A DNA stretch of 64,000 nucleotides, taken from Candidatus Marinacidobacterales bacterium. GTDB lineage: Bacteria > Acidobacteriota > Vicinamibacteria > Marinacidobacterales > SMYC01. Of the stretch, positions 28,438-37,650 are shown in pieces; position 1 is the stretch's first letter; each line of letters begins with the position of its first letter. Position numbers and translations under genes: made by a program. Where the stretch lies: NCBI GenBank assembly GCA_965237955.1, contig OZ250169.1, positions 4,960,001 to 5,024,000 of the forward strand. The letters are read 5' to 3'. The notes under the pieces were generated by a model. The model saw only the letters and a program-made list of their open reading frames with translations. It had not been told where the DNA came from and did no database searches.

Positions 28438-29883
28438 GGAGATGCCCCTGAGATAGTTGAAGGTTAGGAGTGGCGGCTCCTAAGGCCGGGTTCGATAGAA
28501 TCCGGCTGTGAAGGAAAAAGAAAGGAGCCACCACGATGTCAAATTACCAAATCATCGATGCGAAGAACAGGAAGAAGCTTCGAGAGATACTGAGCTCGAA
28601 GGGGCAAGCTCTGTTGCCGTTCTTGGATGCGATTGAGCGAACCGAGATAGCGATCGACGAAGTGATCGACGTTGCTGGCCGAGCGACGATCGAAGCGGTC
28701 TTGGATCTGTCAGCCCAAAGTGTGGCTGGGGAGAAACACCTGGGGAAGAAGGGTAGCGATGTTCGCTGGCACGGCCGGCAGGGTGGCGTAGTAAGCCTTG
28801 CGGAGCGGAAGTTGAGAGTGAGCCGGCCACGTCTGCGGCGTAAGGGAAAGGCAGAGGGAGGGGAGGTTGCGATTCCTGCCTACGAAGCGGTGAACAACTC
28901 GTCTCGGCTGAGCCAACGCATCTGGGAAATCCTGATGCTGGGTGTGTCGACGCGCAAGTACGCGTCGGTTCTTCCCGAGATGGCGGAGACGGTAGGGGTT
29001 AGCAAGAGCGAGGTGAGCCGTGAGTTCGTGGAAGCAAGCGCGGAGCAGTTGCAGGGGCTGATGGAGCGTCCGCTGGACGAGCTGGAGATCGCGGTCGTGT
29101 ACCTGGACGGGATTCGCTTCGGCGAGCACCACGCGCTGGCGGCAATCGGCGTAGATACAGAGGGATACAAGCATGTTCTGGGGCTTCGGGATGGAGCATC
29201 GGAGAACCAGATAGTGTGCAAGGCGCTGCTGGAGGACCTGGTCGAACGAGGCCTGAGCCCAGAGCGGTGTCGGCTGTTCGTGATCGATGGCTCCAAGGCG
29301 CTACGGGTCGCCGTCGACGCTGTGTTCGGTACCCACAACAAGGTCCAGCGTTGCAGGAAGCACAAGGAGCGCAATGTGCTCGGTTATCTGCCGCAGGAGC
29401 TGAAGCCGCAAGTGCAAGCGAGCCTGCGTTCGGCCTGGCAGCTCCCAGCAAAGAAGGGCAAAGCGCGGTTGGAGCAACAGGCGAAGTGGCTCGAGGACGA
29501 CTACCCCTCGGCGGCGGAGAGCATCCGGGAGGGGCTCGACGAGATGTTCACCATCAACGAGCTCGACCTCCCCGCATCTCTGAAACGCTGCCTTGGATCG
29601 ACGAACATCATCGAGTCGTGCTTCAGCGGTGCGCGAGGTCGTACCCGTTCGCGTCACCCGCTGGCGCAATGGCAAGATGGTTCTGAGATGGGCCGCTTCG
29701 GCTCTGCTCGCCACGGAGAAAAATTTCCGTCGTATCATTGGATACCAATCGCTACCGATCCTCGAAGCGAAGTTAGCGGAGGTCACTGAGAATCAAGCGC
29801 TCGACAAGCACGCCAAAGTCGGGTAAACCATGTGTCAGGAGCCGCCACCACCTCGAACCTTCAACTATGGTGGGGGCACCTCC
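28438..29883 (+). mobile_element. IS256 family insertion sequence
   Basis: TIRs GGAGATGCCCCTGAGATAGTTGAAGGTT and AACCTTCAACTATGGTGGGGGCACCTCC; 8-bp target duplication GACTACCG at 28430-28437 and 29884-29891. Confidence 0.93.
28536..29826 (+). CDS. IS256 transposase (frameshift near 29648)
   Basis: GVSTRK, YLDG, IDGSKAL, QRCRKHKERN, STNIIES; C-terminus RVTRWRNGKM is in a shifted frame. Confidence 0.9.
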
Positions 29884-33406: not shown

Positions 33407-34476
33407 CTAATACGTCCTGCCCGCGAGCCCGCGGCGAAGATCGTAGGCCGGCCGGCCGGTGCGGGGGTCCATGGGATAGCGGCGGCAGAGTTCGGCGAGC
33501 ACGTCCTCGTGGCTGAGAGCGACGTTCATGACGGTGTCGTTGCCGCCGTAGTACACGAGAACGGTCCCGTCTTCGCGCCTCAACGCGCCGCACGTGAACA
33601 CGACGTTCGGAACGTGGACGTAGTCGGTGTCGCGCACCGCACAGTCGGCGCGGCTCGGCGTCAGAATCGGGATGGCCGACACCCGCACCGTCGCCGGGGC
33701 CTCGAGCTCGTGCAGGGCGACACCGAGAACGTACGGGTTCCCGTCCATCGTGGTGCGGACCCCGTGGAAGATGTCGAGCCAGCCGTGCGGGGTCCTGATC
33801 GGCGGCGCGCCCGGACCGATCTTGTCGGCGAACGCCGACGGCCCCCCCCGGCGCGCCACAGCGGCTCGTCGGAGATTTCCCAGCGGCCGGACTCGATGCG
33901 GTCGGTGGTCCCGATCCTGATCTCGGCGAACGCCTGGTTGGGGCGAAAGAGCGCCCAGAACCTGCCGCCGATGGCCTCCGGGAAGATCACGACGTTGCGC
34001 ATGTCCGTTTCGAGGACGGGGCCGTGGCGGGTGAACGCGTTGAAATCCGTCGTCGTGGCCAGCGACACCCGCACCCTGTCCTTCATCCGGGCGTGATAGG
34101 CGCTGTAGGTCACAAAAAAGGTGTCGCCGATCTTCGAGATGCGCGCATCCTCGACGCCGCCCGCCTCGTTTTCGACCAGCCGGGCCCGGTCGACGCCGTC
34201 CGCAAAGAGATCGCCCTCGCGGCACGGAAGCATGGCCGGCTACGGATCGACCCGCCAGTCGTGGAGGCCGTCGGCGCTTCGGGCCAGGCCCAGCACGGAG
34301 ATGCCGTCTCGAAGGTGCGACCTGAACAGCATCAGGCTCTCGCCGCCGTGCTCGGCGATCCCCGCGTTGTGAACCGTCCTGACCTGGAGGTCAGGACTCT
34401 TCCAGACGGCGTTGACGTCGTGGCACGTCAGGATCGGATTGCCGTCGAAACGCTGGACGGGTGCATCGAGATCCAT
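33407..34476 (-). pseudogene. GH130 glycosidase/phosphorylase, short form (in-frame TAG at 34240, frameshift near 33845)
   Basis: [44 protein letters not shown] spread over three ORFs. Confidence 0.8.
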
Positions 34477-34509
34477 CAGCCCGAGACCACCTTGGGCCCC
34501 GCGGCGCAG

Positions 34510-34632
34510 TCGAAGCCACTCGGAGCGGAAAGTTCCCTCTTCGTCGAACCGCTCGTAGGTGTGAGCGCCGAAGTAGTCGCGCTGCGCCTGTAGGGGGTTG
34601 TGCAGGAGCCGCTCGCTGCGGTACCCGTCGGC
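34510..34632 (-). pseudogene. gnd: 6-phosphogluconate dehydrogenase C-terminal fragment
   Basis: [24 protein letters not shown]...F.SEW signature C-terminus. Confidence 0.8.
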
Positions 34633-34764
34633 CATGCTGGGTCTCAAGGCGTATGCTACCATGCGACCCGTGACCATGTCCCCACGGGAGTTCTGCGAGC
34701 GTTTCTGCGGCCAAGGATCGTCTGCGAGAAGAAATGGAAGTTCGGTGTTTGACGGCCCAAACCG

Positions 34765-35050
34765 AGCCCTTGCCGATGTATTCGAGCGACGGATCATCGG
34801 ACAAGAGCTCGCGCTGCAGGCGCTGACCTGCACGTTTCCTCGCGTCCTGGCCGGCCTTCGCGATCCTCGCGTCCAGTCTTGAGTGTATTATTATTGGGTC
34901 CGACGGAGCGTTGGGACAAACGGAGACGGCCTAAGCGCTCGCTCTAACGCTCTTCGGCTCGGAGAACGCGCTGACCCGTGTGATAGTGCTCTTCGATGAG
35001 ATCGAGAAAGCGCACCCCGTGCTCTGGAACGCCCTGCTCGGGATCCTGAG
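34765..35050 (+). pseudogene. ClpA/ClpB-like AAA domain remnant
   Basis: RIIGQE, degenerate LLLGPT..ETA Walker A, LFGSE, VLFDEIEKAHP.LWNALLGIL with stops, indels and an internal deletion. Confidence 0.75.
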
Positions 35051-35125
35051 GCTTTGTCGGTGCTGAGCGGCTGACGGAGCCTGTGAGAGTGATGTAAGTA
35101 CGTTGCAATCTAGAGCCACGAATCA

Positions 35126-35368
35126 TCAATCCTTATCGATATCGTTCAAGATATCGTGAATCGTGTCTGGCTGCGCGGCATAGTTGTGCGTCATGTTGGT
35201 CGTGAAGATTTCCTTTGCGGCCCGGTCGCCGGCGTCGTCGGAGGATAAGCCCTGGTTCGTAAGCGCACGTACGCGGTCCCTCCATTTTCTAACCTGGGCA
35301 GGCGTTGGCTCGTCCTGAAAGAGGCCATACAGAATCCGAAGCTTGTGCTGCGCATCGCGAATGCTCAT
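35126..35368 (-). CDS. Hypothetical protein (80 aa)
   Basis: SD-like AGGAG/AAGG upstream; plausible composition. Confidence 0.5.
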   Translation of the reverse strand: MSIRDAQHKLRILYGLFQDEPTPAQVRKWRDRVRALTNQGLSSDDAGDRAAKEIFTTNMTHNYAAQPDTIHDILNDIDKD

Positions 35369-35577
35369 CCTTTTTCTCCTGTCGTCGCTTGTAAATGCTG
35401 CATTACGACAACCTTATTTTTTCAAATCGAGCGTAGGCATAGCTTAGTGAAATTAACGGCGATTCTGGAGGAATTCTGGGGAATGCGCGGGCTGAATGCA
35501 AACGGTCGTTCCAACGCGGACCGTTTTTTGGTGTTGGGAAATCTGTTGGGACTCAGGTGGCGAAACTCGGGTAAAAA

Positions 35578-35680
35578 ACCGTGCAGGAGCTCGGTGGCTG
35601 GAAGTCGCTTCAGATGGTGGAGCGCTATCACGCACCTGTCACCAGCGCACCTCGCGAACGCGATTGAATCCATCGTTGGG
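35578..35680 (+). pseudogene. Tyrosine integrase C-terminal remnant
   Basis: TVQELGGWKSLQMVERY + HLSPAHLANAIESI (catalytic Tyr box), frameshifted. Confidence 0.8.
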
Positions 35681-35760
35681 CGTAAAGGTCCCAACGGTGA
35701 GAAGACGACGAAACGCGGGACCGCGAAGCTAGGCCCTGCTAAGCGAGGCGTACGGTAATT

Positions 35761-35806
35761 TTCATTACTCTAGGGACCGGATCCTTTTCACTACGCTATT
35801 CACTAC
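35761..35806 (+). repeat. Integrase arm-type direct repeats TTCA(C/T)TAC x3
   Basis: TTCATTAC 35761, TTCACTAC 35787 and 35799, between the integrase remnant and the tRNA junction. Confidence 0.55.
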
Positions 35807-35864
35807 ACTCGGGATCTTGGAAATATAACCCTTTTACTTTCAACTCGTTAGGTTGCTAACGTAT

Positions 35865-35908
35865 CAGTTTCTGAGACTGCTGCGTCTGCCAGTTTGCGCC
35901 ACCTGGGC
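35865..35908 (-). tRNA. tRNA-Leu(CAG), 5' half only
   Basis: GCCCAGG TG GCGCAAACTGGCAGACGC A GCAGT CT CAG AA ACTG, then non-tRNA sequence; no variable arm, T arm or 3' acceptor strand found. Confidence 0.85.
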
Positions 35909-35949
35909 ACACTTGTCCTGTTCGAATGACCTCCGTGTGGTTGCCGGGC

Positions 35950-35985
35950 AAAAAAAAGCCCCTGCGGCCGCGCCGAAGGGGCTTT
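35950..35985 (-). terminator. Rho-independent terminator (candidate attenuator)
   Basis: AAAGCCCCT...AGGGGC stem followed by T8 on the minus strand. Confidence 0.85.
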
Positions 35986-36005
35986 GATTCGATCTTCGAT
36001 CGAGT

Positions 36006-36089
36006 CTAGACTTCCACCTCCGAAGCGGACCGGTGCACACCGCCTCTTGGGCCGCTAAGTAACTCGGATAGCCGAAGCCGCTGTATCAT
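36006..36089 (-). CDS. Putative Leu-sensing leader peptide MIQRLRLSELLSGPRGGVHRSASEVEV
   Basis: 27 codons with Leu as CTT, CTA, TTA, CTT; extended -10 TGtTACTAT at 36100-36108; terminator 20 nt after the stop. Confidence 0.65.
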   Translation of the reverse strand: MIQRLRLSELLSGPRGGVHRSASEVEV

Positions 36090-36140
36090 GACGATCGAAA
36101 TAGTAACACGTTTTATCGTGGACGTCGCGGGTTTTCACGC

Positions 36141-37028
36141 ATGGATGCCATTGCGCGCGCACGGCTGAGTCTCGAAGGGCTGTCGCTCGGAGACGGATTT
36201 GGCGAGCGGTTCTTCTGTGCGCCCGAAGTGCTCGACTTCCTACTTCGTGAACGGGCGATGCCCACCGGACCGTGGCGCTATACCGACGATACGGTGATGG
36301 CGCTCTCTATTGTTGAAGTGCTCGAGCGTCACGGGGAGATCGAATCGAACCGTCTCTCTGTTCTGTTCGCGAAGAAGTATGCCGAGGATCCGGATAGGGG
36401 TTACGGCAGCAACGCCCACCGCATCCTCCGGGCGGTCGGCAACGGTGAAGACTGGAGGGACGTTGCGCCGAGCGCTTTCGGCGGTGCCGGCTCGATGGGG
36501 AACGGGGGAGCGATGCGGGTGGCGCCTCTGGGCGCGTATTTTGCCGACGACATCGAGCGTGCCGCTTTCGAAGCGCGGCGCTCGGCCGAAGTAACTCACG
36601 CGCATTTGGAAGGGCAGGCGGGGGCGATCGCTGTCGCAGTGGCGGCGGCCGCTGCCATCAACGGTGAGGATCTCCTGGATGCAGCCCTACGACTTACGCC
36701 GGCGAGCGAGACGAAGCACGGGATCGAGCGCGCCGCGGCGCTGTCTCCGGATTCGAGCGTCGCGGTTGCAGTGGAAGATCTCGGAAATGGCTCGCAGGTC
36801 GTTGCTCAGGACACGGTGCCGTTTTCGCTTTGGTGCGCCGCACGCCATCGGGACGACTTCGAAGAAGCGATGTGGACGACGGTGAGCGGGCTCGGCGATC
36901 GCGACACGACGTGCGCGATCGTCGGCGGTATCGTGGCCGGTGTCGTTGGAGAGGATGCGCTGCCCGCGTCCTGGCTCGAGCTGCGGGAGCCGCTTACGAC
37001 CTTTGCCGGTCATGGCTGGCCGTCGTGA
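36141..37028 (+). CDS. ADP-ribosylglycohydrolase family protein
   Basis: GDGFG, YTDDT, GNGGAMRVAP, GDRDT motifs. Confidence 0.93.
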   Translation: MDAIARARLSLEGLSLGDGFGERFFCAPEVLDFLLRERAMPTGPWRYTDDTVMALSIVEVLERHGEIESNRLSVLFAKKYAEDPDRGYGSNAHRILRAVGNGEDWRDVAPSAFGGAGSMGNGGAMRVAPLGAYFADDIERAAFEARRSAEVTHAHLEGQAGAIAVAVAAAAAINGEDLLDAALRLTPASETKHGIERAAALSPDSSVAVAVEDLGNGSQVVAQDTVPFSLWCAARHRDDFEEAMWTTVSGLGDRDTTCAIVGGIVAGVVGEDALPASWLELREPLTTFAGHGWPS

Positions 37029-37047
37029 TCCTTTTTGTGGAAAGATA

Positions 37048-37650
37048 ATGTTCATCCATTCGATCGACGAGAACACGACGCTTGCGTTGGTCGAGATGCG
37101 CGACGCCGATGAGCTGTTCGAGCTCGTGGACGCGTCGCGCATGTACCTTCGGGAATGGCTTCCTTGGGTCGATGCCAGTGTGTCGGTGGAGGATACGAAG
37201 GCGTTCGTCTACGCAGCGCAACAGCAGTATGCTCTCGGTGACGGTTTCCAGTGTTGCATTCGCTACCGGGGGAAGATCATTGGCGTCATCGGATTTCACC
37301 GAGTCGATCGGTTCCACAAGCACGCCGAGATCGGCTACTGGTTGGCGGAGGAGTATCAAGGTCGCGGGATCATGACCGCGTGTTGCCGCTCATTCGTCGA
37401 TTTTGCCTTCCGCGAGTACAAACTGCACCGCGTCGAGATCCGGGCGGCGGTCGAGAACCAGAAGAGCCGCGCGATTCCGGAGCGTCTCGGCTTCACCCAC
37501 GAGGGAACGCTCCGCGAGTCGGAGTGGGTAAACGACCATTTTGTGGACGGCGCGGTCTACGCGATGTTCGAGCGCGATTGGACCTCTCCCCCGTCGGGGG
37601 AGAGGTTGAAGACTGCACCGTTCGTCCCCCGTGGGGGAGAGGACAGGTGA
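37048..37650 (+). CDS. RimJ/RimL family GNAT N-acetyltransferase
   Basis: LREWLPWV, EIGYWL..YQGRGIMT, NQKSRAIPERLGF. Confidence 0.92.
   Translation: MFIHSIDENTTLALVEMRDADELFELVDASRMYLREWLPWVDASVSVEDTKAFVYAAQQQYALGDGFQCCIRYRGKIIGVIGFHRVDRFHKHAEIGYWLAEEYQGRGIMTACCRSFVDFAFREYKLHRVEIRAAVENQKSRAIPERLGFTHEGTLRESEWVNDHFVDGAVYAMFERDWTSPPSGERLKTAPFVPRGGEDR

Follow-up and report, generated by a model that had tools for sequence, protein, structure and literature searches.

Can a leader-peptide attenuator have a tRNA gene as its target? Attenuators of this kind are known for enzymes and synthetases, and E. coli leuL is a leader-peptide transcription attenuator. The question is raised by the minus strand of the window (the whole 64,000-nt stretch of Candidatus Marinacidobacterales DNA analysed here), where the initial annotation placed a leucine attenuator in control of a tRNA-Leu(CAG) gene. 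That proposal survives in the sense that related units precede intact tRNA-Leu genes; it does not survive for the copy in the window, which makes no tRNA, and the target appears to be a spare type of tRNA-Leu.

The elements upstream of the tRNA are as described (Table 1). The extended -10 box is present, as is the 27-codon ORF with the leucine codons CTT, CTA, TTA and CTT, which are uncommon in this genome as claimed (10.9, 3.9 and 1.3% for CTT, CTA and TTA among the leucine codons of its long GC3-rich ORFs). Taken by itself, this leader has 4 Leu in 26 codons and no excess over chance (p=0.26); its length and stop position are the same as in the homologous unit L029. The strong terminator was also recovered, its hairpin followed by a run of eight T. 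The -35 hexamer looks decayed, or else this copy relies on the extended -10, and the start would be of the leaderless type. A simple promoter/terminator scan of the window flagged neither this promoter nor this terminator, the whole-region fold of the window is not unusual (z=0.49), and Rfam returned no match in the window at gathering score, nor any tRNA up to E=10. A contig from run X18, which may be an RNA run, spans 36063-36150 and carries no information on expression. Within the spacer, positions 35909-35935 are ~84% like a hairpin at G000:C1:1453556-1453587 and in G013 (L009), over 32-38 nt.

Table 1. Features of the leader-terminator-tRNA locus and of the adjoining element debris, in window coordinates.
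Feature	Position	Strand	Details
Degenerate -35 hexamer (3/6)	36123..36128	-	17 nt from -10
Extended -10 box	36100..36108	-	10 nt before ATG, without Shine-Dalgarno
Leader ORF, 27 codons	36006..36089	-	Leu at codons 5, 7, 10, 11
Predicted segment 1	36064..36079	-	Codons 4-9, includes Leu5 and Leu7
Predicted antiterminator, segment 2	36014..36023	-	Codons 22-25; pairs with terminator 5' arm
Intrinsic terminator	35950..35985	-	Stem 35982-35958 (-17.9 kcal/mol), 8-T tail 35957-35950
41-nt spacer	35909..35949	-	~26 nt longer than that of L029; contains non-conserved GGAGG
5' half of short-arm-type tRNA-Leu(CAG), pseudogene fragment	35863..35908	-	Acceptor 5' strand, D arm, anticodon arm with A37
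Integrative-element end	35780..35862		35781-35816 resembles DNA that adjoins tRNA genes and integrase remnants in G033 (L007, L010; 87-89% over 35-38 nt)
Frameshifted C-terminal scrap of tyrosine integrase	35575..35755	+	14/18 residues identical to L007 fragment (PF00589)
End of second element	35300..35576		94.7% identical to G012 (L002) over 282 nt

A tRNA-like sequence does begin at 35908, after the annotated 41-nt gap; it is only a 46-nt 5' half (35908-35863), lacking the T arm and the acceptor 3' strand and not forming a complete cloverleaf. The fragment has an intact-type relative. ARAGORN calls no tRNA gene in the window, and pattern searches across the 8.13-Mb genome did not find the 3' half; the genome has five ordinary long-arm tRNA-Leu genes, CAG among them. 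An intron-containing or split gene was considered and rejected, as ARAGORN with introns calls none here, Rfam has no intron match and the 3' half is missing genome-wide. An assembly error at the break was likewise discarded: two contigs, one of 4709 nt from run X1 (covering 35000-36018) and one of 394 nt from run X2 (covering 35514-35907), each agree with 0 differences. In sister-strain contigs the ATG has become ACG at 36088, with loss of the start, and a D-stem pair is broken at 35884. Judged from its sequence, the window copy cannot yield a tRNA. Its switch may still fold, but its output would be a tRNA half, and the copy is therefore likely a decaying relic. It is a poor test object.

The 3' half is lost beside integrase scars. 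DNA downstream of the tRNA half is element debris that differs between strains (Table 1); some sister-strain contigs are without 303 bp of the scar, and the T arm is absent there too. The integrase scrap has no Pfam match by itself. In G033 (L007:1402-1540 and L010:1400-1540), integrase remnants are accompanied by an element end abutting the 5' end of an intact tRNA-Arg or tRNA-Met gene, whereas in the usual case, exemplified by L003, it is the 3' end. That the region is a mosaic of broken genes can be seen from an ORF (34243-34833, minus strand) into which a C-terminal scrap of 6-phosphogluconate dehydrogenase is fused, and from a transposase-like ORF, labelled by eye (28536-29789, plus strand). 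Genes for an ADP-ribosylglycohydrolase and a RimJ/RimL-type acetyltransferase (36141-37650, plus strand) are transcribed away from the leader. In G009 and G013, ~50 nt resembling the leader 3' end adjoin the same acetyltransferase gene, whose start follows directly; this stretch is likely a further remnant. Outside the window, G000:C1:1295353-1295426 (minus strand) holds a gene of tRNA shape whose acceptor stem is tmRNA/Ala-like (G3-U70) and whose anticodon arm is odd; it lies 4.5 kb from tRNA-Leu(CAG), and ARAGORN calls it Cys(ACA), while Rfam scores it at 18.4 bits.

Intact units exist elsewhere. A DNA search of 41 relatives returned one full homologue, in G031 (L004, the same as L029), whose leader matches in length and whose terminator is the same, followed by two intact tRNA-Leu genes of 77-78 nt. 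A D-arm pattern, applied over the genome collection, gave 23 loci, of which 14 have tRNAs and 7 the leader-terminator-tRNA layout. Metagenome and viral scans covered at least 119 and at least 120 stretches, and together with a family search they added L035, L062, L133, L145 and L287. At least 10 further independent loci, in records titled Acidobacteriota or Gammaproteobacteria and in metagenome contigs, combine a promoter, a 23-28-codon ORF, a terminator and 1-3 intact tRNA-Leu genes that lack the long variable arm. The 10 homologues used below (L029, L011, L016, L021, L022, L028, L287, L035, L062 and L145) make, with the window, 11 independent units sharing the layout; the duplicates and near-copies L004, L008, L051, L033 and L133 were left out. 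tRNA-Leu lies directly after the terminator in 10 of 10 homologues, and the near-copies L033, L133 and L051 also have intact tRNA-Leu straight after it. Intact units are shorter than 400 nt and have sigma-70-type promoters.

Two other readings of the downstream region were ruled out by these comparisons. A deleted leuA, ilvB or leuS gene had been raised, with the orphan GGAGG near 35930 as its Shine-Dalgarno sequence; none of the three genes occurs at any of the 10 homologous units, where intact tRNA-Leu follows in every case, and the GGAGG is missing from the closest homologue. A promoter belonging to the tRNA itself, in the 41-nt gap, fares no better: the promoter scan of the window gave none, and in 5 of the 11 units the terminator-to-tRNA gap is 10-16 nt, which therefore leaves no room there for a separate promoter. 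Model R1, run on 55 + 149 genomes, gave no strong match at any other gene among the candidates scored. Its weak matches, at 8 loci, are ordinary terminators except for L305 (L305:1437-1600, in G588), a 29-codon Asn-rich ORF and terminator before a gene that we take to be asparagine synthetase B, and hence a candidate Asn attenuator. By eye, no leader of the kind seen in the window is visible within 330 nt upstream of this genome's leuS.

The cassette is rare and patchy across genomes, the short-arm pattern occurring in 0 of 401 genomes of the phylum, 1 of 55 in the order and 7 of 201 in the family of G455, where only G455 and G628 of the 7 have short-arm tRNA-Leu. Short-arm tRNA-Leu is common in arrays and phages, and of the 54 Leu-only clusters that have it, 43 are without the leader-terminator; the tRNA type therefore does not imply the switch.

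As a group, the leaders are rich in leucine. Over the 11 units, 56 of 258 codons are Leu and 49 of these fall within codons 5-16, while base-shuffled leaders contain 24.5 +/- 4.4 and reached 56 in 0 of 3000 trials; the Leu codons, whose conservation was the point at issue for the annotated leader, are conserved and enriched across the family. The leader peptides are not conserved beyond their leucine content and a tail motif. Twelve of 13 units have a -10-like hexamer 6-10 nt upstream of the ATG, none of the 13 has a Shine-Dalgarno motif, and a -35 with 5-6 of 6 matches at 17-18 nt spacing is present in 10 of 12 homologous units; the closeness of the -10 to the ATG, together with the lack of a Shine-Dalgarno motif, points to leaderless translation of the leaders.

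The 11 leaders had been chosen by eye among candidate ORFs, and a rule-based test was therefore run on 138 clusters with a short tRNA-Leu, of which 85 had a candidate ORF and 81 were scored (no more than 8 amino-acid types). The amino acids of the upstream ORF match the tRNAs of the cluster (81 clusters, p=0.0004, inflated by related loci), and the match is still there with Leu excluded (38 clusters, p=0.0015, likewise inflated by related loci). Matching leaders include Ala/Leu/Pro (L093), Leu/Ser/Trp/Tyr (L160 and L099) and Met/Leu/Gln (L056). Multivalent leaders with terminators, matching mixed tRNA clusters, were seen at L093, L096, L056, L161, L194 and L232, their sets including Ala/Pro/Leu/Gly/Asp, Met/Leu/Gln, Pro/Leu/Ser/Cys and Ser/Leu. 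Leaders rich in Leu/Ser/Tyr/Trp/Cys also end just before tRNA arrays at L023, L099, L276, L160, L105, L108 and L069; no intrinsic terminator was called in the scanned loci among these, and they possibly represent a Rho-dependent or processing-based version. A finer match, between leader codon type and cassette anticodon, was tried and dropped, most leaders using CTA, which CAG/GAG cassettes do not read.

An intrinsic terminator lies between leader and target in 11 of 11 units, 23-37 nt past the stop. The leader tail carries, 13-15 nt upstream of its stop codon, a nearly invariant purine motif in which three G are the same in all 10 aligned units. In folds of partial transcripts, the mean probability that the leader holds the terminator arm was 0.27 for naked RNA, 0.76 when a ribosome was placed on the first Leu codon and 0.25 when it was placed on the stop; none of 60 codon-order shuffles and only one of 60 synonymous shuffles matched this stall-specific fold. 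The antiterminator is accordingly modelled as one that would be freed only by a stall at Leu codons. In the window, the naked fold pairs segment 1 with segment 2, and segment 2 pairs with the terminator 5' arm once the codons to Leu5-Leu11 plus 12 nt are masked. Masking the leader codons, as had been suggested, does predict a stall-dependent antiterminator, at codons 22-25 (36023-36014) and not at codons 12-16. The pairing originally proposed right after the Leu codons is possible (-19.4 kcal/mol), but the conserved segment is at codons 22-25; codons 12-16 would lie under a ribosome stalled at Leu10/11, are not conserved and, in the fold model, pair only with a ribosome at the stop, and they were rejected as the antiterminator.

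Covariation, expected of both folds, was found for one. In the terminator, 5 of 12 consensus pairs are changed on both sides (10 units); the antiterminator cross-pairing shows no covariation (p=0.43), its motif being nearly invariant, and its duplex is no stronger than those of composition-matched leader-tail shuffles (167/500). With the full transcript at equilibrium, the terminator wins in 9 of 11 stalled folds, and the predicted switch must therefore be kinetic. The arm is still sequestered with the ribosome at the stop in L016 (0.81), L145 (0.63) and the window (0.44).

The tRNAs of the cassettes are themselves unusual. Nineteen of 24 parsed with a 5-nt variable loop, the other 5 being 76-77 nt long, and they have the features of type I tRNA-Leu, namely a Leu anticodon, a Leu-type D arm and the 5-nt variable loop. 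Their anticodons are CAG, GAG and sometimes UAG, UAA or CAA, in 1-3 genes per cassette, all Leu. A73 is present in most copies, A15-U48 and Leu-like acceptor stems are kept, and in the D arm C13 replaces the usual G. The tRNA-Leu(GAG) of L021, L028, L035 and L287 has C33 instead of the near-universal U33. A37 occurs in 20 of 20 cassette NAG tRNAs, including all 12 whose loci had not been chosen on that basis; G37, by comparison, needs TrmD methylation. Ordinary long-arm tRNA-Leu was found in 5 of 5 hosts examined (G458 and G459 lie outside this set), with G37 in 13 of 13 genes found; long-arm CAG was seen in 4 of the 5 (completeness of the G031 genome is 73%), and a single LeuRS is encoded in each of 5 genomes. 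Because the hosts keep long-arm G37 tRNA-Leu, the short-arm A37 cassette genes can be regarded as spares, and on sequence grounds the target is a spare short-arm tRNA-Leu, not the housekeeping tRNA-Leu. In an uncontrolled sample of 14 neighbours, Pfam searches gave several proteins with roles in RNA or translation, namely RtcA, EF-Tu, a cyclic-phosphate receiver domain (cREC), a 3'-5' exoribonuclease and, below cut-off, PTH2, the others being unrelated; in the window, the neighbour is the ADP-ribosylglycohydrolase. An EF-Tu gene (L062) and a PTH2-like gene (L287) lie on the same strand after the cassette and may share its control.

We hypothesize, with a probability of about 0.7, that the window holds a broken copy of a sporadic cassette and that the intact unit is a feedback attenuator, supplying backup tRNA-Leu when leucine decoding slows. 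Leader translation, regulation, trigger and charging are what we infer, and the fold switch is a prediction. Without a ribosome, segment 1 would hold segment 2 and the terminator would form; a ribosome at the stop would cover segment 2, and the terminator would form again. A ribosome paused at Leu codons 5-11 would instead allow segment 2 to capture the terminator 5' arm, and polymerase would read into the tRNA genes. The useful trigger would be the loss of working Leu-tRNA (through cleavage, inactivation or a missing modification) more than a lack of leucine, because extra tRNA does not cure an amino-acid shortage. The host's one LeuRS would load the spare tRNAs with Leu.

Charging is where an opposing reading begins, in which the leader senses leucine starvation and the short-arm tRNAs carry another amino acid, or escape editing, for deliberate mistranslation at Leu codons. 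The type I tRNA-Leu of S. coelicolor is charged by the LeuRS of that species but not by the E. coli enzyme (PMC6614811); the E. coli failure speaks for mistranslation and counts against the backup explanation. One host LeuRS with no cassette-linked synthetase, C13 in the D arm and C33 in four GAG tRNAs would also fit, and mistranslation would give starvation induction a purpose. We nonetheless consider it unlikely: A73, A15-U48 and Leu-like acceptor stems are retained, S. coelicolor LeuRS is reported, as 'data not shown', to charge and edit both types alike (PMC6614811), and mixed cassettes with ordinary Ser, Tyr, Gln, Ala and Pro tRNAs obey the same leader rule. That rule also bears on whether the unit is a general sensor of translation stress or antibiotics, opened by any stall in the leader, with the Leu codons incidental. 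The spread of the Leu codons, which do not form one run, the EF-Tu and PTH2-like genes that follow two cassettes, and the induction of a cyanobacterial tRNA array by chloramphenicol (PMC8421152) would suit such a sensor, which becomes rather improbable when Leu is doubled against background and confined to codons 5-16, and when leader amino acids track cassette tRNAs with Leu excluded too.

Dispensing with a switch altogether would leave a constitutive terminator behind a gene for a small protein or sRNA, with leaky read-through as the source of the tRNAs. The dominance of the terminator in equilibrium folds and the lack of covariation in the antiterminator cross-pairing (p=0.43) are what one would then see, whereas peptides unconserved apart from Leu content and tail motif, a stall-specific fold that beats both shuffle controls and the codon-cassette match make this very improbable. 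It is harder still to believe that the window copy remains in use, making a tRNA 5' half or driving the downstream scar DNA; this genome does preserve its ORF, ATG and terminator, but the -35 is decayed, the ATG and a D-stem pair are lost in sister contigs, and what lies downstream is element debris varying between strains.

The backup attenuator can be set beside known systems. The leu/ilv, leuS, trpS and pheST attenuators likewise have a short cognate-codon ORF and an intrinsic terminator, along with the segment 1:2 / 2:3 / 3:4 logic that is predicted for the cassette, whereas the cassette would target tRNA genes and not an enzyme or synthetase, has a probable leaderless-type start and spreads its Leu over codons 5-16. 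The cassette would work like a leuL-type attenuator, yet is outside the leu/ilv/leuS family by its target; Rfam leader families have no match in the window. T-box riboswitches bind uncharged tRNA directly and control a terminator without a leader ORF; the cassette would also sense the state of tRNA but has a leader ORF, and no T-box match was found by Rfam in the window. Candidate leuS leader attenuators have been described in Streptomyces (PMC1262725), and S. coelicolor ilvB is reported to be unaffected by leader-codon changes (PMC1262725), which counts against the attenuation reading. The S. coelicolor type I tRNA-Leu(CAA) shares with the cassette tRNAs the 5-nt variable loop, long-arm isoacceptors alongside and one LeuRS (PMC6614811); its gene resisted deletion (PMC6614811), whereas the cassette genes appear to be A37 spares behind a leader-terminator.

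The nearest published parallel is the stress-induced, promoter-controlled tRNA operon of Anabaena PCC 7120 (PMC8421152). This L-array or trn operon likewise consists of extra, horizontally spread tRNA genes that are silent until translation is impaired, and rtcB is co-regulated with it (PMC8421152). It differs in having 23 tRNAs, promoter direct repeats and a hypothetical repressor (PMC8421152), against 1-3 tRNA genes, all Leu, in the cassette, and the words 'attenuat' and 'leader' are absent from the main text of PMC8421152. A full-text literature search, with most subscription journals outside its coverage, found no account of tRNA genes under the control of a leader-peptide attenuator. The cassette would thus be a familiar type of switch, with what looks like good comparative support and a tRNA-gene target that we did not find in print.

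More speculatively, the cassettes could belong to a modular tRNA-rescue system, in which a leader written in the cassette's own codons senses the loss of those tRNAs and induces replacements that dodge the lesion, having no variable arm, and A37, so that TrmD m1G37 is not needed; Leu-only and multivalent versions would be distributed among bacteria and phages, frequently next to genes for RNA repair. This wider proposal is tentative, and we hold it as a possibility to be doubted. The units in any case supply many natural short-arm tRNA-Leu for tests of LeuRS recognition. If the feedback attenuator is real, the ribosome gauges tRNA supply and orders more, closing a direct loop on tRNA genes. 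This would give a testable reason for extra tRNA genes in bacteria and phages, and the amino acids of a leader would become a label for the stress that a cassette answers.
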